A stretch of DNA of 64,000 nt from an uncultured Alphaproteobacteria bacterium. GTDB lineage: Bacteria; Pseudomonadota; Alphaproteobacteria; MPNO01; DASWLB01. The notes beneath the pieces are model-generated. The model did no database searches and had not been told where the DNA came from. It saw only the letters and a program-made list of their open reading frames with translations. Within the stretch, counting starts at the first letter, position 1, and each line of letters begins with the position of its first letter. Location: contig CAWGXN010000005.1 in the NCBI GenBank assembly GCA_963826605.1, positions 392,116-456,115 of the forward strand, read 5' to 3'. Positions 32,081 to 55,629 of the stretch are shown piece after piece. Made by a program: the position numbers and the translations under genes.

Positions 32081-32081
32081 C

Positions 32082-33654: not shown

Positions 33655-33717
33655 TGACGGCCCCGGGCGCGCGGCCTACCTAGGATGGGCGGATACGGAG
33701 TTGCCGCCTTGCGCAAG

Positions 33718-35148
33718 ATGTGGCCCTTTCGGCTTGCCGCCGCCGCGGCGGCATTGGTGTTTTCCCTCGTCGCCTCGGTGGCGCCGGCGCTGTCGGAGGG
33801 GATGGGCCTGATCCGCGATTCCGAGATCGAATCCACCATCCGCACCTTCGTCACCCCGCTGTTCAACGCGGCCGGGCTCGATCCCGACGCGGTCAAGGTC
33901 TACATCATTGATCAAAACGCGCTCAACTCGTTCGTGACGGGTGGGCAGAACATCTTCATCACGACGGGCCTCCTGATGCGCGCCGAGAGCGCCGGCCAGG
34001 TGATCGGCGTGGTGGCGCATGAGACGGGCCATATCGAGCATGGCGACCTGGCGCGCACGGCGGGCGAGCTGGCCGGCATCCAGAACGAGGCGCTGGCCGC
34101 GCAGATCCTGGGGATCCTGCTCGCCATCGGCACCGGCAACGGCGGCGCGGCCGCGGCGGCGGCGGCCGGCGGAGCGCAGCTCGCCCAGCGCTCGTTCCTC
34201 AGCTATTCGCGCGGCCAGGAGGCGTCGGCCGACCAGGCGGCGGTGAAGCTTCTCGACGCGACGCACCAGTCCGCGCGCGGGCTGCTCGATTTCTTCCGCA
34301 TCCTCGACAGCGAGACGCTGCTGGCCGGCGCGCATCTCGACCCGTATTTGCAGACCCACCCGCTGACCCCGGAACGCATCGCGTTCGTGAAGAACTGGGT
34401 CGCCCATTCGAACTACACGGACGTCCCGGAGAAGCCCGAGTTCAAGCGCCGCTTCGCCATGATGCGCGCCAAGCTGGTCGGCTTTCTCCAGCCGCTCGGC
34501 CAGGTGCTGCGCGCCTATCCCGACAAGGACCAGTCCGTCGCCGGGCGCTATGCCCGCGCCATCGCCTATTACCGGGCGGGGCAGCTTTCGACCGCGCTCC
34601 CCTTGATCGACCGGCTGATCGCCGAGCAGCCCGACAACCCCTTCTTCCACGAGGTGAAGGGGCAGATGCTGTTCGAGCACGGCAAGCTCGCCGAGGCGCA
34701 TTCGGAGTACCAGGACATGGTCCGCCTCGCCCCGGGCGAGCCGCTGCTGCGGACCGAGCTCGCCCACGTGCTGATCGAAACCGGCGACAAGGACAACAAC
34801 CGCAAGGCGCTGGCGAACCTGAACGCGGCCCTCGAAATCGACAACACGAACGCCCAGACGTGGCAGCTCGCCGCCACCGCCTACGGGCGGGACGGGCAGA
34901 TGGGCATGTCCGCGCTCTCGAACGCCGAGTACAATCTGCTGATCGGCCGCAAGGGCGACGCGCGCGGCCAGGCGAGCCGCGCCGAGCGGCTGCTGCCGCG
35001 CGGATCGCCGGGCTGGCTCCGCGCCCAGGACATCGAGAACACGATCCGCGCCGACGGCGAGCGACGAGTCCGACCGGCCGCGGCGGGTTCCGGTTCGAGA
35101 TGCGGTAGGGCCCTCTGCTCGTCGTCGGGCGGGGCGGGCGCTATTTGA
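33718..35148 (+). CDS. M48 family metalloprotease with TPR repeats (BepA/YfgC-like); C-terminus possibly frameshifted
   Basis: Signal peptide, LIRDSEIE, AHETGH, YSRGQEASAD, THP. Confidence 0.88.
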   Translation: MWPFRLAAAAAALVFSLVASVAPALSEGMGLIRDSEIESTIRTFVTPLFNAAGLDPDAVKVYIIDQNALNSFVTGGQNIFITTGLLMRAESAGQVIGVVAHETGHIEHGDLARTAGELAGIQNEALAAQILGILLAIGTGNGGAAAAAAAGGAQLAQRSFLSYSRGQEASADQAAVKLLDATHQSARGLLDFFRILDSETLLAGAHLDPYLQTHPLTPERIAFVKNWVAHSNYTDVPEKPEFKRRFAMMRAKLVGFLQPLGQVLRAYPDKDQSVAGRYARAIAYYRAGQLSTALPLIDRLIAEQPDNPFFHEVKGQMLFEHGKLAEAHSEYQDMVRLAPGEPLLRTELAHVLIETGDKDNNRKALANLNAALEIDNTNAQTWQLAATAYGRDGQMGMSALSNAEYNLLIGRKGDARGQASRAERLLPRGSPGWLRAQDIENTIRADGERRVRPAAAGSGSRCGRALCSSSGGAGAI

Positions 35149-35792
35149 TGAATTCCGCCTCGGGCTGGCGCGCCGGCTCGGCGTCGGCAAAGGCATCCAG
35201 CTTCATGCATTCGGCGAACACGCCCATCAGCCGCGGATAGGCGTCCAGCGGGCACTCGTAGCGCTGGGCGTTGAACACTTGCGGCACCAGGCAGATGTCG
35301 GCAAGGCCGGGCGCGTCGCCGTGGCAGAACCGGCCCGTCCGCCGGGTCGTTCGCCAGGAACGATTCCAGCGCCTCGAACCCCAGCCTGATCCAGTGGTGG
35401 TACCAGGCGTTCACCTGGGCGTCGTCGGCCGCCAGGTTGGCGCGCAGATAGGCGAGCACGGCGGCGTTGTTCAGCGGATGGATGTCGCAGGCGATGATCT
35501 GGGCCAGGCCGCGCACGCGCGCCCGTTCCGTGGCGTCCTTCGGCAGGAAGGGCGGGCTCGGGTGCGTTTCGTCGAGATACTCGATGATGGCGAGCGACTG
35601 GATCAGCACCGTCCCGTCGTCGAGCTCGAGCGACGGCACGCGCCCCTGCGGATTGACCCGGCGGTAGGCCTCGCCGGTCTGCTCGCGCTTGGCGAAGTTG
35701 ACCAGCACCGGCTCGGCCTGAAGCCCCTTGAGGTTGAGCGCGATCCGCAGCCGGAACGCGGCCGACGACCGGAAGAACCCGTAATGCTTCAT
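35141..35792 (-). CDS. maiA: Maleylacetoacetate isomerase (GST zeta), frameshift near 35340
   Basis: FRSSAAFRLRIALNLKG, NPQGRVP, IACDIHPLNN. Confidence 0.9.
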
Positions 35793-35844
35793 CGCTGCCC
35801 TCCCTTGGGTTGCCGGGGGCGGCGAGACTAGCAGCGGCGCGCCG

Positions 35845-36978
35845 TCAGATATAGTGTTGGCGCAGCGGCGGGAATCCGTTGAAGCCCACCGAGCAGTAGC
35901 TCGCCGTGTAGGCGCCGGTCGCGTGAATCTCGATCCTGTCGCCGGCGGCGAGGTCGAGCGGCATCTCGTAGCCCGCCTTGTCGTACAGCACGTCGACCTC
36001 GTCGCAGGTCGGCCCGGCCAGCACCACCGGCCCGGTCGGGCCGCCGTCCTTCGGCGTCGTGATGCGGTACTGGATGGCCTCGCCCATCGTCTCGGGCAGG
36101 CCGCCGAACTTGCCGATATCGAGATAGACCCAGCGCCGCGCCTCGTCGTACGACTTGCGCGACACCAGCACCACCTCGGCCTGGATAATGCCGGCGTCGC
36201 CGACGAGCCCGCGGCCCGGCTCCAGCACCATGCGCGGCAGGCGGTTGCCGAAATGGCGGGTCATCGCGTTCATGATGGACGCGGCGTAGTCCTCGAGCGG
36301 CGGCACGTCGGCGCGGTAGCGCGCCGGGAACCCGCCGCCCAGATTGATCATGCGGAGCTCGATGCCGCGCGCGGCGAGGTCGGAGAACAGCAGCGCCGTC
36401 TTGCCGATGGCGACGTCCCACTGCTCCGGGTTGCGCTGCTGCGAGCCGACATGGAACGACACGCCGTAGGGGTCGAGCCCCTTGTCGCGCGCGGCTTCCA
36501 GCAGGTCGGCGGCCATCGCCATGTCGCAGCCGAACTTGTCCGACAGCGGCCAGTCGGCGCTGGCGCTGCCGTCGATCAGGAGGCGGCAGAACACCTTCGC
36601 GCCCGGCGCGGCGCGGGAAAGCTTGTCGAGCTCCTCGGCCGAATCGAAGGCGAAGATGCCGATGCCCAGCGCGTGCGCGCGGGCGATGTCGGCCTCCTTC
36701 TTCACCGTGTGGCCGAACGACAGATTATCGGGCGCGGCGCCGCAGGCGAGGCAGCTCTCGATCTCGTAGATCGAGGCGGCGTCGAGGCTCGCGCCCAGCG
36801 GGATCAGCCGGCGCAGGATCTGCGGCGCCGGGTTGGCCTTCACGGCATAGAAGATGCGTGCCAGCGGCAGCGCGTCGGCGAGCGCGCGGTAGTTCGCCTC
36901 GATCGCCTCCAGGTCGACGACCAGGCAGGGGGTCGGCGGGCGCTCACGGTCGAGGAATTCGCGGATCCTCGCGGTCAT
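35845..36978 (-). CDS. Type III PLP ornithine/lysine decarboxylase
   Basis: FYAVKAN, KFGC, SFHVGSQ, NLGGGF, EPGR, GPTCD, GAYT. Confidence 0.93.
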   Translation of the reverse strand: MTARIREFLDRERPPTPCLVVDLEAIEANYRALADALPLARIFYAVKANPAPQILRRLIPLGASLDAASIYEIESCLACGAAPDNLSFGHTVKKEADIARAHALGIGIFAFDSAEELDKLSRAAPGAKVFCRLLIDGSASADWPLSDKFGCDMAMAADLLEAARDKGLDPYGVSFHVGSQQRNPEQWDVAIGKTALLFSDLAARGIELRMINLGGGFPARYRADVPPLEDYAASIMNAMTRHFGNRLPRMVLEPGRGLVGDAGIIQAEVVLVSRKSYDEARRWVYLDIGKFGGLPETMGEAIQYRITTPKDGGPTGPVVLAGPTCDEVDVLYDKAGYEMPLDLAAGDRIEIHATGAYTASYCSVGFNGFPPLRQHYI

Positions 36979-37054
36979 CGGCGGTACTCCAGCCAGTAGA
37001 AACCAGAACCGCCGCCTAACGGCCGAGGGCCGGATGCGGACAGCAGAGCGGCGC

Positions 37055-37082
37055 GTTATACGCCGAAATCCGGTCGTGTAAA
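37055..37082 (-). promoter_or_regulatory. Sigma70-type promoter of the decarboxylase gene
   Basis: Minus strand TTTACA-N16-TATAAC. Confidence 0.55.
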
Positions 37083-37134
37083 CAGAATTCGGGACCCGCG
37101 CGCGAGATTCTCGATGGGCGCTGCGACCGCGGCG

Positions 37135-37576
37135 TCAGACCATGTCGGAGAGGTAGCGCAGCGCCACCATGGCGGCGAGCCCGAACAGCGCGATCAGCGA
37201 GAACAGCCCGATCAGGCGGAACGGGTTGGACTTGCGCGCCTTGGCGGCGCGCACCGCCTCGGCCCGCTTGCGCACCTTCTCCTGCGCCTGGACGGTGCGC
37301 TGGCGCTGGACGTGCTCACGCACCTCGCGCGTGCGCTCGAGCGCCTGGGCGTTGGCTTCGGCGATCTTGGTGCCGCGGAAGATGGTGCGGATCTTGGTCT
37401 TCTGGGTGCCTTCGTCGAACTCTTCTTCGATCACCCGCACCCCCGGGTGGCGTCCGGATTCATCCATCCGCTGCGCTTCGAACAGCGCAAGGTCGCGGTC
37501 GTCGAAGATCGAAGTCGATCTTCCATTTCCCGCCCTGGAATGTGTGGATTTCGTAGGCCTTCAGGCTGGTGCTCAT
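37135..37576 (-). CDS. Hypothetical protein with a C-terminal membrane anchor (frameshift near 37515)
   Basis: MSTSLKAYEIHTFQGGKWKID continues into IFDDRDLALFEAQRMDESG; C-terminal TM helix. Confidence 0.7.
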
Positions 37577-37591
37577 GGGCGTGCCGCCGGC

Positions 37592-38053
37592 CTAGGTCGC
37601 GACGACTTCGCGGCAGTTCGCCGCGCAGACCAGCGCCGCGATGGCGTGGCCGTCCTCGCTGGTGGGCAGGATGATCGAGCGGTACAGGAAGGTGATGCCG
37701 CGCCCGTCGCGGAACGAGCCGCCGCGCGAGACGGGCACCTGCTTGCGCATCACCTCTTCGAGATAGGTGACGGGCTGGGCCGGCAGGATGTCCTGTTCCA
37801 GGTCGCCGACGCGCGCGCCGGGCAGCGACCTGGCCGCGTACGAGGCGATGGTCCGGCCGGCCCGCAGGATGCGCGGGTTGTGCGCATCCTCGGCGATGTC
37901 GAGGACGAAGCAGAAGGGCCACAGCTCCGGCACCTCGCGCTCGTCGAAGCATGCTGCGGACGGCCATGGCAGGGAGCCGCGCGCACCGCGCCAGTATTCG
38001 AGCAGGCGCAGCACCATGCGCCGCTCTTTGCCGGTGCGATGCTCTTCCGTCAC
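37592..38053 (-). CDS. Standalone PAS-like domain protein
   Basis: LLEYW...RG..PWP, CFVLD, YRSIILP. Confidence 0.7.
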   Translation of the reverse strand: MTEEHRTGKERRMVLRLLEYWRGARGSLPWPSAACFDEREVPELWPFCFVLDIAEDAHNPRILRAGRTIASYAARSLPGARVGDLEQDILPAQPVTYLEEVMRKQVPVSRGGSFRDGRGITFLYRSIILPTSEDGHAIAALVCAANCREVVAT

Positions 38054-38224
38054 GCTGACCTCGCTGGAAATGCCTGTGAATGCGGGCCTTTACCAACGAA
38101 GTTTGCGACGATTTGATTAAATTCCCGTAAATCGGCCGGCAACGCCACCACCCCCGCACGCGGGCGCGGGCGGGGGTGGCGGGCGGGAGTGGCGGGGGGC
38201 GGGCCGGGCCCCTCGGTCAGCGCG

Positions 38225-39562
38225 TCAGCGGGTCAGCCAGGCGCGCTTGCGCACGGTGCAGACCGCGTAGGGGAAGATCCAGAACAGGGCGACCGAGGCG
38301 AAGTATGCGTACAGCACCCCGTAAAGGAAGTCGAACGACCGTTCGCTGCGCAGGAAGTAGAGCACGTTGAGCAGCGCCACGAGGCCCATCGCCGTCATCA
38401 TGCGCGGGATGGTGTTCGGGTCGCTGACGGCAAGCTGGACCATCAGGACCAGCGAGGCGTACAGCACCGGAAAGCGCAGATTGGTGATCAGCCGGTCGAC
38501 CAGCGCGATCACCCGGGTCACCAGCGGCCGCTTCCACACGATGCGGGCGAAGCGAAGCTCCTCGCGCACATAGCTGCGGTCCCAGCGCAGCAGCATCTTG
38601 CACAGCTTCTTGTAGCGCTGGGGCACCTCGGTATGCACCACGGCGGCGCGCTGGTAGACCGTGTCATAGCCGGCGTCGAGCAGGAAGTTGGTCATCGCGC
38701 GGTCTTCGCCGAACGTGCAGCGGGCGCCCAGGAAGTGCTGGTTGCGCCAGCGCTCCAGCACGCCACGCACGGCCGAGGCGCGCAGCCCGGTCAGTGCGCC
38801 GGGGCAGCAGAACACGTTGCGGTACACCAATTCCACCGAGCGCAGGAAGTCGAACGACAGCACGTAGCGCACGTGCAGCATGCGCGGGATCAGCCCGTCG
38901 CGCCGATTATAGACCAGTACCTTGCCGGCCACGGCGCCGACCCGGGGGTTGGCGAACGGCCCGGCGAGGGCGAGCAGCGCGTCGGGCTCGATCACGCTGT
39001 CGGAATCGATGGTGACCAGGATGTCGCCCTTGGCGCGGTCGAAGCCCAGCGCCAGCGCCTCGCGCTTGCCGCGGTTGCGGTCCTGCTGCAGGGGCGTGAC
39101 CAGCCCGGGATAGCGCGCGGCGGCCTCACTGATCCAGTGCCAGGTGTCGTCCTTCGAGCCGTCGTCGATGACGATGATCTCCAGCCGGTCGCGCGGGTAG
39201 TGCGCGGCGGCCACCGCCTCGATCGACTTCAGCACCATCTGCCCCTCGTTATAGGCCGGGATCACGACCGTCATTTTCGGCGCGTCCTGGAAGCGTGTGG
39301 CAGGGAAGGGGCGGTACGACATCCACACCGCGGTGCGGAACAGCAGCAGCGCGGCACCCATCGCCGTCCATAGGATGGACGGGTAGAGGAACCACTTCAC
39401 CGACCGGTGCTGGTCGGCGAGCTCGATGAACCGGCCCCACAGGTTATGCGCCTGATAGGAGAAGGCCAGGACGACGGCGGCGAAGATGGCGGCATAGACG
39501 AACAGCGTCCATGCGTCCGTGCCGCCGGACGCCTGCCCACGCGCACGCGATAGTACTGTCAT
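38225..39562 (-). CDS. Processive GT2 glycosyltransferase, hyaluronan synthase/NodC-like
   Basis: IPAYNE, DDGSKD, GKREAL, DSDS, CCPG.L, GEDRAMTN, MLLRW; N- and C-terminal TM helices. Confidence 0.85.
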   Translation of the reverse strand: MTVLSRARGQASGGTDAWTLFVYAAIFAAVVLAFSYQAHNLWGRFIELADQHRSVKWFLYPSILWTAMGAALLLFRTAVWMSYRPFPATRFQDAPKMTVVIPAYNEGQMVLKSIEAVAAAHYPRDRLEIIVIDDGSKDDTWHWISEAAARYPGLVTPLQQDRNRGKREALALGFDRAKGDILVTIDSDSVIEPDALLALAGPFANPRVGAVAGKVLVYNRRDGLIPRMLHVRYVLSFDFLRSVELVYRNVFCCPGALTGLRASAVRGVLERWRNQHFLGARCTFGEDRAMTNFLLDAGYDTVYQRAAVVHTEVPQRYKKLCKMLLRWDRSYVREELRFARIVWKRPLVTRVIALVDRLITNLRFPVLYASLVLMVQLAVSDPNTIPRMMTAMGLVALLNVLYFLRSERSFDFLYGVLYAYFASVALFWIFPYAVCTVRKRAWLTR

Positions 39563-39843
39563 GACACTCCGTTCGGGGAGCCGCGCACCGCGCGGCCGCG
39601 CCCCCCACCATTCGGCCCCATGCGCGCCCGGCGCCCTCAGGCGCCGCTGCCGCTTCCGGCCGTCGGACGATTCCCACGCAGCAGGGGCGACGAATCCGGC
39701 GTTGATTCTTCGTTGATCCGTCGCCTGCAGGGCTTCTGCGTCACTCGGTCACGTCATGGTCACCGCCGACGCCGGCTGGGACCCGAATTCCGCCGCCCGA
39801 GCGTTGCCCGATTCGAGCCGCGTGCTATAACCGGAGGGGCCGA

Positions 39844-40317
39844 ATGCAGGGAACGCGCGCCTTGGCCTCACCACCGCGGACGTTGGTCCTCAACGGGCCG
39901 AACCTCAACATGTTGGGCAGCCGCGAGCCCGACATCTACGGCCACACCACCCTCGCCGAGGTCGAGGCGCTATGCCGAACTGCGGCCGAGCGGCTGGGGC
40001 TGGAGGTCGATTTCCGCCAGTCCAACAGCGAGGCGGAGCTGGTGACGTGGATCCAGGAGGCCAAGGACCGGGTGGCGGGCATCGTCATCAACGCCGCCGC
40101 CCTCACCCACACCTCGATCGCCATTTTGGATGCGCTCAAGCTCACCGAGCTGCCGGTGATCGAGCTGCACCTGTCGAACCCGATGAACCGCGAGCCGTTC
40201 CGCCGCCGGTCCTACGTCACCCCGGCCGCACGCGGGCTGATCTGCGGGTTCGGCCCGCAGGGCTACGTGCTGGCGCTCGAGGCGATGGCCCATCTTCTAG
40301 CCGAGCCGGGCGGCTGA
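39844..40317 (+). CDS. aroQ: Type II 3-dehydroquinate dehydratase
   Basis: LNGPNLNMLGSREP.IYG, QSNSE, THTS, ELHLSN. Confidence 0.95.
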   Translation: MQGTRALASPPRTLVLNGPNLNMLGSREPDIYGHTTLAEVEALCRTAAERLGLEVDFRQSNSEAELVTWIQEAKDRVAGIVINAAALTHTSIAILDALKLTELPVIELHLSNPMNREPFRRRSYVTPAARGLICGFGPQGYVLALEAMAHLLAEPGG

Positions 40318-40757
40318 TGGCGCCGGTCAAGCTCGACCCCGACCTGATCCGCAGCCTCGCCGCCCTCCTCGAGGAAACCGGCCTCAGCGAAATCGAGCTG
40401 GGCGAAGGCAGCGCCCGCGTCCGGGTGGCACGCCCCGGACCCGCCGCGCAGGGCCATTCGGCGCCCGTTGCGCACGGGCCCGCCGCGGCCGTGCCACCGC
40501 AGGCGCCGGTCGCGGCCGAGCATCCCGGACTGGTCAAGGCGCCGCTGGTCGGCACCGTCTACCTGGCGCCCGAGCCCGGCGCCGCCGCGTTCGTCAAGGC
40601 GGGCGACATGGTGGCCGAGGGCCAGACTCTGGCGCTGATCGAGGCGATGAAGACGTTCAACCCGGTGCGCGCGCCACGCGCCGGGCGGGTGGTGCGCATC
40701 CTGGTCAGCGACGGCACCCCCGTGGAGTACGGCGAAGGGCTGATGATCCTGGAATAC
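40317..40757 (+). CDS. accB: Acetyl-CoA carboxylase biotin carboxyl carrier protein (stop codon missing in this sequence)
   Basis: LSEIE, APLVGT.Y, IEAMKTFN. Confidence 0.92.
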
Positions 40758-42112
40758 ATGTTCGACAAGGTCCTGATCGCCAACCGGGGGGAGATCGCGC
40801 TGCGGATCCACCGCGCCTGCCACGAGATGGGCATCCAGACCGTGGCGGTGCATTCGACGGCGGATTCGGACGCGATGCATGTGCGCCTCGCCGACGAGAG
40901 CGTGTGCATCGGCGAGGCGCCGGCGCGGGCGAGCTACCTCAACATGCCCGCCATCGTCTCGGCGGCGATCGTCACCAACGCCGACGCGATCCACCCCGGC
41001 TACGGCTTCCTGTCAGCGAGAACGCCCGCTTCGCCGAGATCGTCGAGGAGCACGGCATCGCCTTCATCGGCCCGGCCGCCGAGCCATATCCGGCTGATGG
41101 GCGACAAGGTGGCGGCCAAGGCCGAGATGCGCCGGCTGGGCGTGCCCGTCGTGCCCGGCACGGTCGAGCCCGTCGGCGGCGACAACGAGGCCATCGCCGC
41201 GGCCGAGGATATCGGCTACCCGGTGCTGATCAAGGCGGTGGGCGGCGGCGGCGGGCGCGGCATGAAGCGCGTCGCAAGGCGCGAGGAGATGTCGGAAGCG
41301 CTGGCGACCGCCCGCGCCGAGGCGCCAGGCCGCCTTCGGCGAGCCGCGCGCTCTATGTCGAGAAGCTGCTGCACCCGGCCACGCCACATCGAGATCCAGG
41401 TGCTGGCCGACGGGGCGCGGCAACGTGGTCCATCTCGGCGAGCGCGACTGCTCCATCCAGCGCCGCCACCAGAAGGTGATCGAGGAGGCGGGCTCGCCCG
41501 GCCTCAACCGCGCCCAGCGCGACCGGCTGGGCGAGACGGTGCGCGCCGCGATGGCGGGGCTCGGCTATCGCAACGCCGGCACGATGGAGTTCCTGTACGA
41601 GGACGGCGCGTTCCACTTCATCGAGATGAACACGCGGCTGCAGGTCGAGCATCCGGTGACCGAGATGATCACCGGCATCGACATCGTGCGCGAGCAGATC
41701 CGCGTCGCCGCCGGCCTGCCGCTCGGGTTCGGCCAGGACGAGGTGCGGTTCTTCGGCCACGCGATCGAGTGCCGCATCAACGCCGAGAATCGCCCGTCAC
41801 CTTCCGCCCTTCGCCGGGGCGCGTCGGCCGAATACCATCCGCCGGGCGGGCCGGGCGTGCGCGCCGATTCGGCGCTCTATTCCGGCTACACCATCCCGCC
41901 GCACTACGATTCAGCTGGTCTCCAAGCTCGTGGTGCATGGCGCGACGCGCAACGAGGCGCTGATGCGGCTCCGCCGCGCGCTCGAGGAATACGTGATCGG
42001 CGGCATCGAGACGACCATCCCGCTGCATAGACGGATTCTCTGCGAGCCCGACTTCGTGAACGGCGCCTACGACACCACCTGGCTCGAACGGCTGATGGAG
42101 CGGGAAGGGTAG
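40758..42112 (+). CDS. accC: Biotin carboxylase (multiple frameshifts)
   Basis: [50 protein letters not shown]. Confidence 0.95.
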
Positions 42113-42440
42113 GACGCCGCGCGTGATATGATGATGCCGATATGTTTGCTGCGCGTCGCATCCGCATCGTCGGCCACGCGGGGCAGGGGCATCAGCGCGA
42201 AGCCGTCGGACATGGTGAACGGGTGTTTGTCTGGATGCCGCGCACCGCCTCGTCGGCATCGTCGCCGACCGTCAGCGTGTCGGCATCGAGCTGGATCGCG
42301 TATTCCGTCTCGGACCGGTCGAGCAGGTAGAGCAGCCGTTCCCACGTGCCGCCGCGCTGGCAGCCGCCGACGGGTATGTCCTCGAGGATCACGAACTCGA
42401 TCCCCGGGACGTGATGCTCCTTGAAGGCCCCGGTCCTGAT
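42113..42440 (-). pseudogene. Internal fragment of an unrelated, possibly glycosyltransferase-like gene
   Basis: Protein-like stretch HVPGIEFVILEDIPVGGCQRGGTWERLLYLLDRSETEYAIQLDAD with a DxD; no proper start or end. Confidence 0.55.
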
Positions 42441-42574
42441 GTTCTTGCGCAGGCGGAATAAACGGGACGACGCATAGGGGTCGGTGCGCCGGGTCTTGTC
42501 AACCGCGGCCCCCCTCGACGCCGCACGCGCGCCGCCCCCTCCCGCCCGGGCACGTCGCGCACTAGATTATCGTA

Positions 42575-43225
42575 ATGTCCGCCCTCACGCCGGAAATCCT
42601 GCTGCGCGCCTATTCCGTCGGGCTGTTCCCGATGGCCGAGCGGCGCGACGACCCCACCCTCTACTGGATCGATCCCGAGAAGCGGGGCATCCTGCCGCTC
42701 GGTGCGTTTCACGTGCCGCGCCGGCTGCGCCGCACCGTGCGCGCCGGCCGGTTCGAGGTGCGCTGCGACACGGCCTTCCGCGAGGTGATGGAGGCGTGCG
42801 CCGCGCCGGCGCCGGGCCGCGCCGAATCCTGGATCAACGAGGAGATCCTCCGGCTCTACGAGGCCCTGCACCGCATGGGCCGCGCCCACTCGGTCGAGTG
42901 CTGGCGCGACGGCGACCTCGTCGGGGGGCTATACGGCGTGGCGCTGGGCGCGGCGTTCTTCGGCGAAAGCATGTTCAGCCGCGAGACCGACGTCTCGAAG
43001 GTGGCGCTGGTGCATCTCGTCGCCCGGCTGGCGAAGGGCGGGTTCCGCCTGCTCGACACCCAGTTCGTGACTGACCATCTCGCGCAGTTCGGCGCGGTCG
43101 AGATCCACCGCGACGGCTATCGCGCGCTCCTGGCCGACGCGCTCGACATCAGCGCGACCTTCTATTCGGAACTCGGCGCGGACGAGCTCGACGCGTTCTT
43201 GCAGTCGAGCACCCACACGTCATAG
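42575..43225 (+). CDS. aat: Leucyl/phenylalanyl-tRNA--protein transferase
   Basis: [34 protein letters not shown]. Confidence 0.95.
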
Positions 43226-43633
43226 ACGGGATTCTCCAGCGCGCTCAGTGCCGGCGACGACGCGAACATCCAGCCGGAAAAGATCCGCACCGGGTTTTCG
43301 CCCGGTTTTGCGTCGCGGAATCTCGAGGAAGGCGGCGCTCTCCGGCGTTTCCTCCGGCGGGCGCTTGCGGCAGGTGCGGGCGGTGATCTCGAGCGAGCCG
43401 AACTTCACCGTCTTGCCGACCGGCGCATCGAAGGTCGAGACGCGTGCCGTCACCTTGTCGAGCCCCTGCATCACCACCTCGTCCAGCGTGAGCCAGTTCT
43501 CGTCGTTCGCGGCCGGCGCCGCCGTCCCGCCCGCCACCAGCAGGGCGACGGCGAGGGCGATGGCGCCGCCGGCGATCCGCTGAGCGCGGGCCGGCCTCGG
43601 GCGAGGCGTCTGTCGGTGTCCGTCAGGTGTCAT
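43162..43633 (-). CDS. DUF2155 domain protein (frameshift near 43315); 3' end overlaps aat
   Basis: [21 protein letters not shown], then [28 protein letters not shown] in the shifted frame. Confidence 0.85.
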
Positions 43634-44393
43634 CCATCCGCCAGGGCGGCGGCGAAGCGCAGCCGCACATAGTCAACGACCCATCCGCCCGACGGTTCGC
43701 GAAGGCGCGGCGCCAGCGCCTCGCGCAGCCCGTCGACAAAGCCGGCGCGCTCGGCCGCGGGCACGGCCGCCAGGAAGGACTTCGCCGAACGTCTCCAGCC
43801 AGCCGGCGATGTCGCCCGGGATCGGCGTCGGGCGCGGGATCAGCGCGATCTGGCGGACCGCGAACCCCGCCGCATCGAGCTTCGCGCGGTACGCCTCCGG
43901 GCGTGGGGAAGTACCAGGGATCGCAGGCGGCGGCGTCGAGCCCCCGCGCCGCCATCGCGCGCGCGATCTCGGCGCGCACCGCCGCGACGTTGCCGTCCCC
44001 GCCCATCTCGGCGACGAACCGCCCGCCGGGCTTGAGGGCGCGCGCGACGCCGCGCCAGCACCGCGTCGGGCCGCGTCATCCAGTGCAGCGCCGCGTTCGA
44101 CAGCACGCCGTCGAATTCGCGGTCGAAGGCCAAGCGCCTCGCCGTCCATCACATGCGCGTCGAGCCCGCGGCCCGCGCCGCCGCCGATCTGCTCGGCGCT
44201 CGCATCGACGCCGACGACCCGTGGCGCCGCGCGCGGAGATCTTTCGGTCAGCGCGCCGTCGCCGCAGCCGAGGTCGAGGATGCGCTCGCCCGGACGCGGG
44301 TCCAGCAGATCGAGCAGCGGCGCCCCGAGAGTCGGCGACGAACCGCGCGTTGCGGGCATAGCGTTCGGGGTTCCAGCTCTGGCGCGCGCTCAC
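43623..44393 (-). CDS. Class I SAM methyltransferase, Tam-like (multiple frameshifts)
   Basis: W..ERY.RNARFV, ILDLGCGDG, FDGV.SNAALHWM, PWYFP, RPTP.PGD..GWLETF. Confidence 0.82.
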
Positions 44394-44400
44394 GCCGGGC

Positions 44401-44924
44401 CTATTTCAGCTCGGGAGTCGTCGTCTTCCCGGAGCGCCGGTTTCGCCGCCCTTTTCGCCGCCGCCCTTTTCGCCGCCGCCGCCGGCCTTGCCGAACACGG
44501 CCTGGCCGACCAGCGAGATCAGGTCGACCGAGCCCTGGGTGTACTGGAACGCGTCGCCGTTCTTCATCATCTCGTCCGACGCCGCCGGGCGAGATCGCGA
44601 GGTAGTTCTCGCCGAGGAGGCCCGACAGCAGGATCTTCACCGCCGAATCCTTCGGGATCTTCACCGACGGCTCGATGCTCATGCGAAAGCTCGGCGAGAT
44701 ATGTGTCGGGATCAAGGCGCTCGCCGATCACCGAGCCGACCTTGATGCCGCTGATGCGCACGTCGGCGCCCGGCTTCACCCCGTCCACCCGGTCGAACTT
44801 GGCGAGCAGGTGATAGCCTTCGACCGCGCCCACATTCGGCGGTCGAATAGGCGAAGATCAGGAATCCGGCGGCGACCAGCAGCACCACGGCTCCCATCAC
44901 GGTCTCGATCAGGTTGCGTCCCAT
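44401..44924 (-). CDS. mlaD: MlaD/MCE family protein (frameshifted)
   Basis: [41 protein letters not shown]. Confidence 0.85.
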
Positions 44925-44958
44925 CGCGCCTCGCTCGCTGGTCGGCCTTGGCGGGCGG

Positions 44959-45319
44959 TCACGCCGGCCGCCACGGCTCGTAATCGTCGGTGCCGGCGGG
45001 CACCCGGCCGCCGGCCAGCGCGTGGCCCGGCGGCCGATAGGCCTCCGGCGTGCCGGTCGGGTTGGGCCGGTGCGGCTTTTGCCAGGGGCGGCGGCGCGGC
45101 GGCGCCTCGACCGGCGTCGACGTTCACCGTGTGGTGCAGCCAGCCATGCCATTCGGGCGGCACCGACGAGGCCTCGGCCGCGCCGGCATAGATCACCCAG
45201 CGCCGCTCGCGCCGGCCGGTCGGCCGGCCCTTCTCGCGGAAATAGCGGTTGCCGAAGGAATCCTCGCCGACCGGCTCGCCCTTGAGCCACGTATAGAGCC
45301 GCGTTCCCAGCGTCGTCAT
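44959..45319 (-). CDS. NADH:ubiquinone oxidoreductase subunit NDUFA12 family (frameshifted)
   Basis: [42 protein letters not shown]. Confidence 0.9.
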
Positions 45320-45448
45320 CGTCCCGTCGCGCCCCTCGCCCGCGCTAACCGCGCGCCCGGCCGCACGGCCGAGCGGAATATTGCACCTGCCGCCGGCCCC
45401 GTCCACCGCAACGGAGCCGCGCGATTCGGCGGGGCGAAGGTCGGTTTT

Positions 45449-45545
45449 CCACCGGATATGGTAGGAGTTCGTTAATCTTCCGCAAAATATGGTTGCGCAC
45501 GCGAAATCTGGGGGTTTAGTATTCTTGGACCGCAAGATATGGGCC
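45449..45545 (+). promoter_or_regulatory. Tandem NrdR-box-like sites
   Basis: CCACCGGATATGGTAG (45449), CCGCAAAATATGGTTG (45480, 31 bp later), CCGCAAGATATGGGCC (45530), upstream of an RNR homologue. Confidence 0.55.
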
Positions 45546-45591
45546 TGGATCGCGAGGGGACGCGGGGCCAGCAGGCGGCGGGGGGAAGACA

Positions 45592-48587
45592 GTGCGGATA
45601 GCGCGACGGTTCACCAGCGCCGGCCGGTCTCCCTACGAAGGGATCGCCTTCCGAGTGGCTGCGCGCGACGACGATATCGAGCGGACCGGGGTCGAGGCTG
45701 CCCGAGGCATGGTCGGCCGAATCGGGCGAGGCGCTGGCCGAGCTGTGCTTCGCCGAGCCCTGCGTGCCGCGCGCCACCGTGGCGATCCCCGAGGCCGACG
45801 TTCCGGCCTTCCTGTGGCGCCACCGGGCCGAGCGCGGCGCCGGCGACCGGCTCGATCCCGAGCACGATTCCCGCCAGGTCTTCGACCGTATCGCCGGCGC
45901 CTGGGCCTATCAGGGCTGGAAGGGCGGTGCCTTCGACAGCGAGGACGACGCCGCCACCTTCTATGACGAAATCCGCTATCTGCTGTGCCAGCGCATGATC
46001 GCGCCCGAGCCGGCCGAATGGCGCGCCACCGGCATGTGGTGGGCCTATGGAAGGGGCGGGGCGCGCGCGCGGCTGGATCGTCGACGACCGGTCGGGCGAA
46101 CTGCGCCGCGCCGAGCCGCGCGACGCGCCGCCGCATGGCGCGGCCATCGTGCGCACCCCGCGCGGCGGGGCGGCGCTCGACGGGGTGCTGGCGCCGTGGC
46201 GCGAGGAATCGCTGCTGCTGGCCGAAGGGCTGGACACCGCCATCGACGTCTCCGCCATCGCCGGGCCGGGAAGGCTGATCGCCGCGCTCGGCATCGGCGA
46301 CGCCGTCGCCCGTGCGATCGGCGAGGACGCCGCGCGCGCCCGCACGCTGGTGGTCGATGCCGCCCATCCGGATTCGCGGTCCGGTCGCGGCCCGCCGGAT
46401 GCGCGCGGCCGGGCGCGCGGCGATGACCGCCACCGGCGCGCATATCGCCCGGCGCCACCTTGCCGCGCTCGCCGCCGCCAGCCACGGGCGCGGCCGCAAG
46501 GCGTTCGACCCCGCGCGCAACCCGGCCCTGCGCCTCGCCCTGATCGCGGCGCGCGAGGCCGGCGTGCCGGAGGAATGGATCGAGCGGGCGCTGCGCCTCG
46601 CCCGCCAGGGGCGCGCCTTGCCGGAACTGCCGGCGCTGGACGAGACGGTGGCGGACGAGGAGACCGGGCTCGCCGTCGCGCGCCACGTGCTGCGCATGTC
46701 CGGCCCGGTCGAGGGGCCGTCGCTCGGCGACCTGGCCCTCGCCGCGTGGATGGGGCCCGGCGCGGGCGCTTTGTTCGCCGACACCGCCCAGGCGTGGAAT
46801 CCCGTGCCCCGCCGACGGCGGCATCGCCGCCGCCGCGTGCGACGGCGGCTACGTCTTCCTCGACGGCACGGCCTGCCCGCGCGCGGCGGTCAACGTGCTC
46901 GCCTTCCGCCGCTCCGACGGCTCGTTCGACGCGCCGGCGCTGGCCGACGCGGTCCGGCTGCTGGTCGTGGCGCTCGATTCCAGCCTGGCGACGACCGCCC
47001 AGCCGACCCCGGGCATCGCCGACGGGGTCTGGCGCACGCGGCCGATCGGGATCTCGCTCGCCAACCTCGCCCCGGTGCTGCTGGCGCACGCCCAGGGCTA
47101 CGATTCCACGGGCGGGCGGGCGCTCGCCGCCGCCATCGCGGCCTTGGTCGGCGCCGCCGCCACCTGCGCGTCGGCCGAGATGGCGGGCGAGCTGGGCGCC
47201 TTCCCGCGCTTCGCCGACAATCGCGACGCCGTGCTGCGCGTGATCGCCAACCACGCCCGCGCCGCCGCCGGCGCCCGCGAGGGCTATGACGGGCTGCCCT
47301 GCGCGCCGGTGCCGCTCGACGCGGCCGACTGCCCCGACCCGGCGCTGGCCGAGGCGGCGCGGCTCGCCTGGCAGCGCGCGGCGACGCTGGCCGCCGCGCA
47401 CGGTCTGCGCCATGCCCAGACGACGCTGGTCGCGCCGCTCGGCGCCGCCGAGCGCATCCTCGGCTGCGCGGCCTACGGCATCGACCCGCTCCCGGCCGTC
47501 GTCGCGTTCGAGCGCCTGCCGGGCGGCGGGTTCCGCAAGACGGTCAGCCGCGAGGCGGTCGGCGCGCTCACCGCGCTCGGCTACGACGAAACGCGCATCG
47601 CCGAGCTTGTGGCGCACGCGCTGGGGCGCAACACGCTGGCCGGCGCGCCCGCCATCGACCATCGCAGCCTGCGCGAGCGCGGCTTCACCGAGGCGGCGCT
47701 GCAGGCGATCGAAGTCCGCCCTGGCCCACGCGCTCGACATACGGTTCGTGTTCAACCGCTGGACGCTGGGGCTCGAGTTCTGCACCCGCGTTCTCGGCTT
47801 CTCGCACGCCGAGCTCGACGATTACGGCTTCGACATGCTGTGCGGCCTCGGCTTCACCGAGGACGAGATCGCCGCCGCCAACGCGTGGAGCTGCGGCGCG
47901 ATGGGCTTCGAAGGCGCGCCCGGGCTCGATCCCGCGCACCTCGCCGTGTTCGATGGGCCGCGCCGCCAGGGCACCGGCCAGCGCGCACTCACGACCCTCG
48001 CCCAGATCCGCATGATGGCGGCGGTCCAGCCCTATCTGTCGGGCGGCGTCGGCCGCACCCTCGCCATGCCGGCCGAGGCGACGATCGAGGATTGCGCCGG
48101 GGCGGTGGTCGCCGCCCGCCAGCTCGGCCTCAAGGGGCTGATGGTGGCGCGCGAGGGCGCGGCCATACCGGTGCCGGCCGAGCTGCCGCGCGAGATCGCG
48201 CAGCGCCGCCTGCGCGAGACGCAGGGGCCGTCCGAGCGGCGGCCGACGACGTTCGGCGGCGGTGAATCCGATCCGCCGCCCCTGCGCGAGCGGCTGACGG
48301 TCATCGAGGGCGGCGAGCATCCGGCCGGGGCGCCGCAACCGACGGCGGAGGGGGGCGGCGGGGCCCTCGCGATCCTGGGCCCCGCCGGACCGCTCGGCCG
48401 GTCGCAGGCGCTTGCCATCGCGCTCACCGCGCGCGACGTGGCGGCCGCCGCCGAGGAGCATCACGAGACGTGCGGGCAGGGGCAGGCGCAGTCGCGCTGC
48501 CCCGACTGCGGGAGCTTCGCCCTGCTTCGGACCGAGGCGGGCGCGAAGTGCGGCATCTGTGGCGCCGTGCATCGTTGCCGCGAGTGA
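45592..48587 (+). CDS. Degenerate class II (B12-type) ribonucleotide reductase homologue, predicted catalytically inactive (several indels)
   Basis: Collinear with alphaproteobacterial NrdJ ([47 protein letters not shown]) but catalytic motifs are replaced; C-terminal CPDC..CGIC. Confidence 0.8.
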
Positions 48588-48759
48588 GTAACACGGCAGT
48601 CTGACGTTGCGTCTCCCTGAACTTCGGGGGGTGTGCATGGGCCACACCCCCCGTTTTTATGCCGCTTTCCGGTTCCGCCGTGCCCGCCATGACGGGCGCG
48701 ATGCCCTTGCCGCCGCCCGGTGCGCTTGCGATGATGGCGGCGAACCAGCGGAGAGGCGG

Positions 48760-55195: not shown

Positions 55196-55272
55196 GGCGC
55201 CAATCTATAAGGTCCGGCCGCGGAATCGCCAACCCGCTCGCCGTCCCGGGCCGTTATCGACCGTCACGGGTC

Positions 55273-55301
55273 TTTCACGAACGGGCCCACGCGCCTATAT
55301 T
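55273..55301 (+). promoter_or_regulatory. Promoter of ssrA
   Basis: TTTCAC-N17-TATATT immediately upstream of the tmRNA. Confidence 0.6.
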
Positions 55302-55305
55302 GAGT

Positions 55306-55577
55306 GTGCCGGGAAACCGGCTATGGCGATAAACGGCGTGTGTAATAAACGCAGCGGACCCGGGGGCAGTACCCGGCGCCTCCACCAATCCCACCCCGCG
55401 GTCGGGGCCTATGGGGGCGAAACAGGATCGACGCGCGTCTAAAGGCACGTTTTTTGCCCGGCATGGTTCCGCCGTTATCGGGCCTTTTCTACAGATGCCA
55501 ACGACAACTCGATGGCTCTCGCTGCCTAGACATAGGTAAGCGCGGTTCGGGGGGCACCGGGCAACAGAAGCCCCCCA
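55306..55577 (+). ncRNA. ssrA: Circularly permuted two-piece tmRNA; tag peptide ANDNSMALAA at 55497-55529
   Basis: Acceptor piece ends GGGGGCAGTACCCGGCGCCTCCACCA (55387), then an intervening segment, then the coding piece starting GGGGGCGAAACAGGATCGAC (55413); adjacent to sspB; ends approximate. Confidence 0.93.
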
Positions 55578-55629
55578 CTCGAACCCGCCGGAGCGCGGGG
55601 AAGGGCGGAAGCGTTTCACGGTGAGAGCA

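Follow-up and report, generated by a model that had tools for sequence, protein, structure and literature searches.

The locus at 45592 to 48587 on the forward strand of the window (the whole 64,000-nucleotide stretch of DNA that was analyzed) is likely to encode a full-length protein that descends from NrdJ, the long class II ribonucleotide reductase (RNR) of Alphaproteobacteria, but is catalytically dead; the gene is situated at the ancestral nrdJ position and appears to be held under purifying selection. RNRs are among the best-studied essential enzymes, and this would be a bacterial class II lineage without the chemistry and the allosteric loops that has nevertheless remained intact. As deposited, the gene consists of six frame pieces with five single-base insertions at the joins:

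45592..48587, + strand: dead NrdJ-like gene, from a GTG start (VRIARRFT) to the stop, with PF08471 and PF02867 matches
45696 (approximate), + strand: +1 insertion, junction 1, window-only; covered by no near-identical short contig
46068..46069, + strand: +1 insertion, junction 2, window-only; base absent in a 280-nt contig with 0 other differences
46376, + strand: +1 insertion, junction 3, window-only; base absent in a 392-nt contig with 3 other differences
46800 (approximate), + strand: +1 insertion, junction 4, window-only; covered by no near-identical short contig
47714, + strand: +1 insertion, junction 5, window-only; base absent in a 250-nt contig with 0 other differences

Deletion of the five extra bases produced a 996-codon ORF with one terminal stop, and the start codon lies at the same conserved position in 7/7 relatives checked. 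An earlier note on this DNA had described about 1000 codons free of nonsense codons, a description that holds once the five insertions are read through but not for the deposited sequence, which is six pieces and not one ORF; the normal GC-rich coding composition that it also reported was found as described (GC1 0.78, GC2 0.59, GC3 0.93, a coding-type pattern).

A broken frame and the loss of all catalytic motifs, described below, would be expected of an ordinary decaying pseudogene with real frameshifts, the relic of an nrdJ replaced by class I and short class II enzymes. The insertions, however, are as dense in the flanks as in the gene. In 17.7 kb aligned with two congeners, 26 single-base insertions were found in the window only, at the same rate over the 3.0-kb gene (5) and 14.7 kb of flank (21), whereas one congener had 7 private insertions and the other about 10. 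At 3/3 covered junctions of the five (46069, 46376, and 47714), the extra base was missing in short contigs, although the depth of these contigs is only 2–3 and they may stem from the sample used for the genome assembly; the four DNA data sets with covering contigs contain only 5–14% of the sampled words and provide no near-identical contig over the finger loop or over junctions 45696 and 46800. Because the window-only rate is the same in the flanks, the extra base is absent from the short contigs, and its deletion restores 996 codons, the five insertions look most likely to be assembly errors, in which case the real gene would be the 996-codon ORF. The source genome has a completeness of 78.7% in 6 contigs, compared to 93–98% for the congeners, and breaks also affect the NDUFA12, MlaD, and methyltransferase neighbors and, at another site in the genome, the short nrdJ. 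The earlier note had named polishing of the sequence as a check that might bring back the NPCxE motif of the finger loop; removal of the five bases restored the frame and gave an intact ORF but did not restore NPCxE.

Every motif replacement quoted in that note was present in the window:

46004..46027, + strand: PEPAEWRA, replacing PNSPQWFN, the apical phosphate-binding loop (P-N-S-P motif)
46134..46148, + strand: HGAAI, replacing HACFI; the Cys of that position is lost
46320..46343, + strand: GEDAARAR, replacing SGGTTRRAA; the SGGGKSSG stretch upstream is deleted
46823..46894, + strand: finger-loop remnant; Asn, thiyl Cys, and Glu lost, TAC Cys retained
47432..47449, + strand: APLGAA, replacing APTGTI
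48048..48065, + strand: VGRTLA, replacing ISKTIN
48138..48164, + strand: LMVAREGAA, replacing ALYRDGSK

A residue-by-residue alignment of a congener orthologue with 7b9p, the solved Rhodobacter sphaeroides NrdJ, placed the same replacements opposite PNSPQWFN, HACFI, SNPCSEY, APTGTI, and ISKTIN, and motif tables over the dead relatives agree with the alignment on motif loss. The finger loop reads AACDGGY in the window, AADGGY in the congener G001, and VSEGGY in the congener G002, opposite SNPCSEY of both 7b9p and P0013. The HACFI and TAC Cys residues are the active-site redox pair of the enzyme, and the TAC Cys is retained in the window but in only 22/59 representatives scored dead. The SGGGKSSG and GGTTRRAA stretches are presumably specificity loops 1 and 2. 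The phosphate-binding apical loop of class II RNRs has either a P-N-S-P or a P-A-G-R motif (PMC8365446), neither of which was retained in any of the 59 representatives scored dead, and the window has P-E-P-A in this position. A profile search gave no PF12637/TSCPD match in the window at E <= 0.01, in agreement with the earlier report of a missing TSCPD region. Curated HMM scores were below the cut-offs, with 648 bits for NF005736 (cut-off 1737) and 138.5 bits for TIGR02504 (cut-off 399.95). The marks of an active class II RNR, namely NPCxE, a complete active-site Cys pair, the phosphate loop, intact specificity loops, and HMM scores above cut-off, were all absent, and the gene product is probably a catalytically dead NrdJ.

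We also considered whether the protein might still be an enzyme, either an RNR working through shifted residues or a neo-functionalized barrel with a new active site. In favor of this, the predicted fold is intact, a Cys directly precedes the former thiyl position in the window, and the window lineage retains both the zinc ribbon and the TAC Cys. The congeners, however, do not conserve the shifted Cys, having Ala (G001) or Ser (G002) in its place, and none of the Asn, the Glu, P-N-S-P, APTGTI, and ISKTIN survives. Comparison of 80 dead with 44 real sequences over the aligned columns produced a single dead-conserved column with a changed residue, T531P, and no new conserved polar cluster in the dead proteins. 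Retained or new catalysis is thus very unlikely.

While the catalytic motifs are lost, much of the NrdJ scaffold is kept, and the following parts were recognized:

45695..45991, + strand: N-terminal class II RNR domain PF08471, 62–64 bits against a cut-off of 27
46871..47656, + strand: second half of the RNR barrel (PF02867 positions 226–456), well conserved
47892..48146, + strand: last barrel strands (PF02867 positions 448–522), profile match
48498..48584, + strand: C-terminal Cys-rich ribbon CPDC-x13-CGIC-x5-C, in which the pattern CxxC-x13-CxxC-x5-C is retained

The PF02867 match scored 96.5 bits. An AF2 model of the protein (pLDDT 74.8, pTM 0.78) had 7b9p as its best PDB match, with a TM score of 0.78 by target length, so that both the RNR alpha/beta barrel fold and the PF08471 domain were found. 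Among columns at least 90% conserved in real NrdJs, those surviving in the dead proteins are concentrated in the second half-barrel (14/20), helical insert 2 (5/5), and the N-terminal domain (7/13), whereas the first half-barrel (1/35), the surroundings of APTGTI (1/16), and the finger loop (1/8) have mostly been lost. Of 54 columns found invariant in a set of 14 dead proteins, 22 fall in the PF08471 domain. The C-terminal CxxC..CxxC ribbon, which the earlier note had seen as kept, is indeed present as CPDC...CGIC. The Cys-rich domain of NrdJ contains four zinc Cys residues and a redox Cys pair (PMC5704485); by spacing alone, from which the Cys assignment here is inferred, the four zinc ligands would remain, whereas the redox pair would lack one Cys (the Cys-933 equivalent). 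Relatives in f3 and f4 have no Cys-rich domain and end in ...ADAxVEQRH.

Intact orthologues bear directly on the pseudogene explanation. In the congener G001, the gene is intact over 1019 codons and shows the same motif losses, and intact ORFs were also found in G011, G020, G010, G032, G026, G023, and G035. In relatives with about 50% GC, the frame is open over about 1000 codons with 0 in-frame stops, compared to 33–63 stops in the other two forward frames. Comparisons inside the genus gave dN/dS ratios (NG86) of 0.20, 0.22, and 0.21, and those in two further genera gave 0.12 and 0.31; these values of about 0.2 are only as low as those of the neighbors, and the method is crude under strongly biased codon usage. 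Neighboring ORF pairs gave 0.14–0.47 with a median of 0.23 (n = 12, a set obtained with a loosened filter, the stricter filter leaving 3). The search for homologues without NPCxE, which had been proposed as a check, produced similar dead orthologues with a dN/dS of about 0.2, not near 1. The characteristics of a pseudo-enzyme were found together at this locus: loss of the catalytic residues, a kept fold, purifying selection, and recurrence in many genomes. The earlier proposal of selection on the fold and not on catalysis, in a repurposed RNR, is supported by the intact congener orthologue, the dN/dS of about 0.2, the open frames at about 50% GC, the AlphaFold match to 7b9p, and the presence of other RNRs.

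The gene was present in 14/41 genomes of the order and absent from 27/41, and one congener that is 98% complete does not have it, indicating that the gene is dispensable. A DNA search of G003 for the syntenic region returned spurious short matches only. The gene of G002 has one private frameshift, and in the complete genome G017 the gene is split into two distant ORFs. These absences, the split gene, and the private frameshift are what a decaying relic would show; set against them are the equal density of insertions in the flanks, the short contigs, the 996 stop-free codons, the intact orthologues with a dN/dS like that of their neighbors, and the open ORFs at about 50% GC, and an ordinary pseudogene is accordingly a highly improbable explanation. 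Dead relatives of 845–1020 aa were also found in further families of the order and in other alphaproteobacterial orders; 8/8 weak PF08471 matches fetched from other orders were dead, as were 58 of the best 150 representative clusters. The dead family has at least 2 origins on the tree, which was built with LG+G4 in 'quick' mode and is prone to long-branch artefacts. Several relatives are without 70–80 residues of the first half-barrel, a loss that could reflect slow erosion instead of a fixed function. Purifying selection appears to have kept the dead lineage intact in several alphaproteobacterial families, which probably belong to several orders. The carriers are uncultured MAGs. Among the sequencing runs listed for the gene, none was from RNA, a result that is uninformative on expression.

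The surroundings of the gene are those of an nrdJ locus, and the following features were found upstream:

44909..45319, − strand: NDUFA12-like gene (PF05071), divergent; only the first half in frame, with a window-only insertion near 45119
45375..45543, + strand: upstream region with conserved boxes GGAATATTGCAC (45375–45386), CGCAAAATATGGTTGCG (45481–45497), and CGCAAGATATGGG (45531–45543)
45580..45594, + strand: Shine-Dalgarno-like run GGGGGGAAGACA and GTG start, identical in three congeners

The earlier note had placed the gene at the usual nrdJ position opposite NDUFA12, and the divergent PF05071 gene agrees with this, as 13 of 30 true nrdJ loci from across the class have NDUFA12 upstream. 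The block DUF2155-methyltransferase-MlaD-NDUFA12 / dead nrdJ / RidA-like / FemAB-like / ClpB recurs in f1, f3, and f4. A strict NrdR-box pattern had 0 matches upstream with up to 3 mismatches allowed, the boxes upstream of nrdA and the short nrdJ showed no obvious match to those of the dead gene, and a regular expression for the leader motif did not find it at the 30 true nrdJ loci. Rfam searches returned only a tmRNA for the window and nothing at E <= 0.1 for the conserved leader of the relatives, with one sub-threshold suhB/mmgR match downstream of one gene.

The question of which active RNRs the genome has, also raised in the earlier note, was answered by the detection of class I NrdAB and a short-type true NrdJ. 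The class I alpha subunit has an NLCSE loop and was typed NF006577 (982 bits), and a beta subunit is present; the short true NrdJ was typed TIGR02504 (591 bits) and has an NPCGE loop. By these assignments, dNTPs can be supplied by NrdAB and by the short true NrdJ. We infer that such other RNRs took over dNTP synthesis and that the old NrdJ would then have lost both catalysis and allosteric nucleotide binding, while it may have been retained for a non-catalytic binding or scaffold role residing in the conserved modules. Active long NrdJs may already have a role of this kind.

As to what the dead protein does, we tentatively favor, as the likeliest reading, a function in protein binding or regulation with a tie to nucleotide or B12 metabolism. 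The main alternative, a cobalamin-binding protein (sensor, store, or chaperone) that uses the NrdJ corrin site without the chemistry, is rather unlikely. Consistent with cobalamin binding, one cobalamin riboswitch was found in each of 5/5 carriers tested, with a BtuB-like receptor adjoining it in the source genome, and the second half-barrel is the best-kept part of the protein. A full-length PF02867 match of the short-NrdJ kind was present in 13/14 carriers compared to 11/27 non-carriers, although only one copy, that of G001, was typed (as B12-dependent) and the count is weak evidence because related genomes are not independent. Against this, both sides of the pocket between strand beta-J and the finger-loop Cys, which we take to be the adenosyl pocket, are changed in the window lineage, with LMVAREGAA in place of ALYRDGSK and a degenerate finger loop. 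A pocket in this position in class II RNRs is described in the preprint of Burnim et al.

A dNTP-pool sensor using the allosteric specificity site of the RNR, one of the roles proposed in the earlier note, would follow naturally from descent from an allosterically regulated enzyme. This is improbable, since the stretches presumed to be loops 1 and 2 are affected in all dead proteins, SGGGKSSG being deleted and GGTTRRAA degenerate, while 1/35 strongly conserved first half-barrel columns is kept and four relatives have lost most of that region. The part of the earlier proposal that invoked a nucleotide sensor acting through the canonical specificity site is thus not favored.

It is possible, though doubtful, that the long NrdJ has a second, non-catalytic function, seated in helical insert 2, the second half-barrel, and the PF08471 domain, and that a dead NrdJ is left behind where this function alone is required. 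The modules selected without catalysis (the PF08471 domain and helical insert 2) would then be candidates for this function. If true, a widespread RNR would have a partner or ligand so far unrecognized, one that might, for example, link dNTP supply, B12 status, and another cell process. The diversity of the dead family and its repeated origin could make it a natural separation-of-function experiment, and the progressively stripped RNR scaffolds form a natural series for structural and binding work.

The nearest known system is the long NrdJ itself (NF005736; Rhodobacter sphaeroides 7b9p/7b9q), to which the dead form is similar in fold (35% identity), in the PF08471 domain, the helical inserts, the second half-barrel, the position opposite NDUFA12 and, in the window lineage, the zinc ribbon. 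Unlike the dead form, the long NrdJ has NPCxE, the HACFI Cys, P-N-S-P, APTGTI, ISKTIN, SGGGKSSG, GGTTRRAA, and the TSCPD/IscU-like domain. We found no published description of a dead class II RNR family in the literature and no paper mentioning 7B9P or 7B9Q; the only inactive large-subunit RNR homologues found there were the viral R1 homologues UL45 and M45. MCMV M45 is an inactive R1 homologue with a viral role in host cell-death and NF-kB signaling. HCMV UL45 is a betaherpesvirus R1 homologue that has been called catalytically inactive (PMC5469499). These are likewise full-length inactive RNR large-subunit homologues put to other use, but they are viral and derive from class I R1, whereas the dead NrdJ is bacterial and from class II, and common descent of the inactivation is unsupported.

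Two groups in past work may include members of the dead family. Loderer et al. 2017 (PMC5704485) mention 'a few Alphaproteobacteria' with two NrdJ-like genes, one of them without the Cys-rich domain, and under 3% of NrdJ sequences have neither phosphate motif (PMC8365446). The dead family would fit both groups, which the accessible portions of these papers treat as enzymes, with loss of the active site undescribed there. Sources label the relatives 'ribonucleoside-diphosphate reductase alpha chain' or 'vitamin B12-dependent RNR', so that dead genes may be miscounted as functional B12-dependent RNRs, which would skew metagenome inferences on B12 dependence and oxygen adaptation. The window protein is not a member of NF005401 (PRK06948), 'ribonucleotide reductase-like protein', scoring 62 bits against a cut-off of 906; the short true NrdJ of G001 scored 511 bits with the same model, also below that cut-off.

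The gene at 45592-48587 on the forward strand is not one open-reading frame but six overlapping frame pieces that together specify a NrdJ-like protein. In Pfam searches it matched the class II N-terminal domain PF08471 (62 bits against a cut-off of 27) and, in two pieces, the RNR barrel PF02867 (96.5 and 24.1 bits). TSCPD, described as missing in an earlier note, gave no Pfam match at E <= 0.01. The motif replacements quoted in that note were all found in the window where it had placed them, as was the C-terminal Cys ribbon that it reported as kept.

Motif readings in the window gene
46004-46027, forward strand, PEPAEWRA, opposite PNSPQWFN
46134-46148, forward strand, HGAAI, opposite HACFI
46320-46343, forward strand, GEDAARAR
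46823-46894, forward strand, finger-loop remnant of 24 residues
47432-47449, forward strand, APLGAA, opposite APTGTI
48048-48065, forward strand, VGRTLA, opposite ISKTIN
48498-48584, forward strand, CPDC...CGIC...C ribbon

Alignment with the orthologues of two congeners, G001 and G002, located five window-private single-base insertions, at about 45696, 46068, 46376, 46800, and 47714; the G001 orthologue is an intact ORF of 1019 codons and that of G002 has one private frameshift. The frameshifts of the window gene are most likely assembly errors. Across the 17.7 kb aligned three ways (window 30934-48660), 26 single-base insertions were found in the window only, 5 of them within the gene (3.0 kb) and 21 in flanking sequence (14.7 kb), or about one per 700 bases, while G001 had 7 private insertions and G002 about 10. 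Completeness of the window's genome, in 6 contigs, is 78.7%, compared to 93-98% for the congeners; next to the gene, NDUFA12, MlaD, and a methyltransferase gene are also truncated in frame, and the short nrdJ of this genome (G000:C1:~643000-645400) lies in at least five frame pieces, such that fragmented gene calls are to be expected throughout this genome. Three short contigs (250-392 nt, 0-3 other differences) omit exactly one base each at 46069, 46376, and 47714, the three of five junctions with near-identical contig cover; they come from four public metagenome runs at a depth of 2-3 and may share a sample with the genome assembly. Deleting the five bases resulted in 996 codons with a single terminal stop and a composition of coding type (GC1 0.78, GC2 0.59, GC3 0.93), so the roughly 1000 stop-free codons claimed earlier hold for the corrected reading but not for the deposited sequence. 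Polishing, which the earlier note had proposed as a check, would thus most likely bring back the frame but not NPCxE.

The G001 orthologue aligned nearly full length to the solved Rhodobacter sphaeroides NrdJ, 7b9p (E 5.6e-165). In this alignment SNPCSEY faces AADGGY, PNSPQWFN faces PEPAAWRA, the Cys of HACFI faces Ala, the SGGGKSSG stretch faces a 10-residue gap, APTGTI faces APLGAS, and ISKTIN faces VGRALA. The same protein fell below the cut-offs of NF005736 (648 vs 1737 bits) and TIGR02504 (138.5 vs 399.95 bits). With the catalytic residues gone, the protein is predicted from its sequence to have no reductase activity, and we refer to it as dead NrdJ, true NrdJ being the active class II RNR. 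The window has a Cys immediately preceding the old thiyl position; it was considered as a substitute and rejected, because G001 has Ala there and G002 has Ser, so that it is not conserved. P-N-S-P is the apical phosphate-binding loop of NrdJ, and it or P-A-G-R is present in >97% of NrdJs, according to the sections of PMC8365446 consulted; the window protein has neither. Spacing compared with the Cys roles in the consulted part of PMC5704485 suggests that the ribbon keeps four zinc-ligand Cys and is missing one Cys of the redox pair. The PDB structure closest to an AlphaFold model (pLDDT 74.8, pTM 0.78) was 7b9p, at a TM by target length of 0.78, indicating that the RNR fold is kept.

The gene appears to be under purifying selection. 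By the simple Nei-Gojobori method, with the five bases removed from the window and one insertion from G002, dN/dS was 0.20 for the window and G001, 0.22 for the window and G002, and 0.21 for G001 and G002, compared to 0.14-0.47 (median 0.23) for 12 neighbouring ORF pairs of G001 and G002. Two further pairs of dead genes gave 0.12 (G032 and G020) and 0.31 (G026 and G023), and two more were saturated at synonymous sites. The earlier proposal of selection on fold and not on catalysis is supported by a dN/dS of about 0.2, the intact orthologue with dead motifs, and the 7b9p-like model. PF08471 matched in 13 of 41 genomes of the order, always weakly (E 1e-9 to 1e-19), and wherever they could be aligned the catalytic motifs were absent in all 13; in a 14th carrier, G004, the C-terminal part lies where a contig ends. 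Eight of these 13 have single ORFs of 872-1023 codons (stop to stop), a GTG, TTG, or ATG start stands at the same conserved position in 7/7 relatives checked, and two relatives of ~50% GC keep about 1000 codons open, with 33-63 stops in the other two forward frames. The gene is dispensable, since one 98% complete congener has no copy and in the complete genome G017 it is divided between two ORFs, one N-terminal (472 aa) and one C-terminal (524 aa), both open and ~2.1 Mb apart.

Loci of the split dead nrdJ in G017
L026, G017:C1:~3615276-3616544
L077, G017:C1:~1516706-1517770

In three families of the order (f1, f3, f4), dead nrdJ stands in a conserved block with DUF2155, methyltransferase, MlaD, and NDUFA12, all divergently upstream; in f3 and f4 the genes on its downstream side are RidA-like, FemAB-like, and ClpB. 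In a class sample, PF08471 was present in 195/301 genomes (a tally that counts the unpublished G279 and G080, which served for this purpose only). Most matches had E values between 1e-38 and 1e-47 and lay in reading frames 1200-1300 aa long. Of the 30 best of these true nrdJ loci, 13 have NDUFA12 upstream within 1.5 kb, so the dead gene is the in-place descendant of the ancestral nrdJ. As for other RNRs, which the earlier note had asked about, the window's genome encodes a short-type true NrdJ and a class I alpha that is intact and carries an NLCSE loop. In G001 the class I alpha orthologue (NF006577, 982 bits) adjoins a beta subunit, and the short NrdJ (TIGR02504, 591 bits) has an NPCGE loop and a Cys-rich tail. 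A class I-like match was found in 39/41 genomes of the order and a full-length match of ~775 aa in 24/41 (13/14 carriers of dead nrdJ vs 11/27 non-carriers), counts in which only the G001 copies are typed and related genomes are not independent.

Outside the order, 11 genomes of the class sample gave weak PF08471 matches, and all eight copies fetched were dead; these differ in domain losses, one having a TSCPD-like part and two a zinc ribbon. Searching 1.84 billion representatives with a profile built from 14 dead proteins gave 15,123 matches at E <= 0.001. Among the best 150, the finger-loop N and C were kept in 81 (intein-bearing ones included) and not kept in 59, leaving 58 dead once the fragment P0164, which keeps CSEY, is set aside; in 10 the loop was not alignable. 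A scan of genome contigs returned 15 loci, 13 dead and 2 true, all labelled as MAGs of uncultured Alphaproteobacteria, Rhodospirillales, or Rhodospirillaceae, or as a Robiginitomaculum MAG (true NrdJ). In a tree of hand-chosen sequences (44 dead, 32 true), from which intein-bearing and fragmentary rows were left out, one dead pair fell inside the true cluster and the other 42 on one side of a branch, requiring two state changes; the model is weak (LG+G4 'quick', 875 columns) with long-branch effects likely, and the well-supported branches alone permit one change. The position of protein P0063 and its relative at locus L069 inside the true cluster suggests an independent inactivation, while for the main dead group the tree allows a single or a multiple origin. 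The P0063 finger loop, SNTYSEF, keeps Asn and Glu with Tyr at the thiyl Cys; L069 (G086:C1:~479457-482330, in a 1.1-Mb genome) reads SSLNEDY.

Losses are uneven along the protein. Comparing 80 dead proteins (some near-duplicates) with 44 true ones at columns conserved in at least 90% of true NrdJ, the dead proteins keep 14/20 columns in the second half-barrel, 5/5 in helical insert 2, and 7/13 in the N-terminal domain, compared to 1/35 in the first half-barrel, 1/16 around APTGTI, and 1/8 in the finger loop. Conservation of helical insert 2 is 0.53 in dead vs 0.40 in true proteins. In only one column do the dead proteins conserve a residue that differs from the true consensus, so the aligned columns give no sign of a new active site, and this together with the module losses argues against reductase activity. 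The retained modules would fit a binding or scaffold role. Sensing of dNTPs through the canonical specificity site is argued against by the near-complete loss of the first half-barrel columns and the gap at SGGGKSSG; we take the lost SGGGKSSG and GGTTRRAA-type motifs to be specificity loops 1 and 2. Cobalamin binding is possible, given that a cobalamin riboswitch was found in 5/5 carriers tested and in the window's genome adjoins a BtuB-like receptor, but in the window lineage both sides of the pocket, presumably the adenosyl pocket, are changed. This pocket lies between strand beta-J and the finger-loop Cys of class II RNRs (Burnim et al. preprint, in the portion consulted). The riboswitch match, the only one in the window's genome (96 bits), is at the 5' end of the ORF at G000:C1:218997-221186 (L093), which resembles a TonB-dependent B12 receptor (TIGR01779, 287 bits, below the 599.7 cut-off). 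Dead NrdJs outside the window's family (L023, L029, L030, L031, L032, L083, L084, L088, P0018, and others) are without the zinc ribbon and have a tail that is conserved, ...S-x-SSADA-x-VEQR-H/Q-I/L/V, right at the C-terminal end; this tail could be a docking peptide.

No account of a bacterial NrdJ that is catalytically dead turned up in full-text searches and term searches within papers. Among the sources consulted, the inactive R1 homologues of betaherpesviruses come closest as precedents. The consulted parts of PMC5704485 (a second NrdJ copy that lacks the Cys-rich domain, in a few Alphaproteobacteria) and PMC8365446 (<3% of NrdJs without either phosphate motif) treat such proteins as enzymes, and their supplements may hold members of the dead family. 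Source labels on relatives read RNR alpha chain or vitamin B12-dependent RNR.

A non-coding leader of ~105 nt, GCCCCCCAGAUUUGGGGC ... GUAGUAGCGUUGAGUAU ... UCUGGGGGGACCAA, precedes the lower-GC dead genes and is strongly conserved, with 44 invariant columns across the 230-nt upstream stretches of 9 sequences. RNAalifold paired CCCCCCAGA with UCUGGGGGG, a predicted structure whose pairs hardly vary. The leader had no Rfam match, and a regular expression for its motif found none at 30 true nrdJ loci.

Leader loci of lower-GC dead nrdJ
L023:5390-5494, reverse strand
L027:5788-5894, reverse strand
L029:4533-4639, reverse strand
L031:5487-5594, reverse strand
L030:1646-1754, forward strand
L032:1558-1651, forward strand
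L088:3808-3914, no strand given
L090:3808-3914, no strand given
L083:151-242, no strand given

At the stop of the G026 dead nrdJ there is a sub-threshold match to the suhB/mmgR sRNA (L030:4694-4772, forward strand; 32.5 bits vs 41, E 0.0056). Upstream of the window gene, a strict NrdR-box pattern gave no match; conserved boxes stand at 45375-45386, 45481-45497, and 45531-45543, comprising GGAATATTGCAC and a repeated CGCAA(A/G)ATATGG box; the first copy of this box forms an imperfect palindrome that G001, G002, and a further genome, G010, share. The pattern C[AG]A[AGT]ATATGG occurs 14 times across the whole genome of the window. A tmRNA gene of the alphaproteobacterial two-piece (permuted) type lies at 55269-55579 on the forward strand of the window (263.6 bits).
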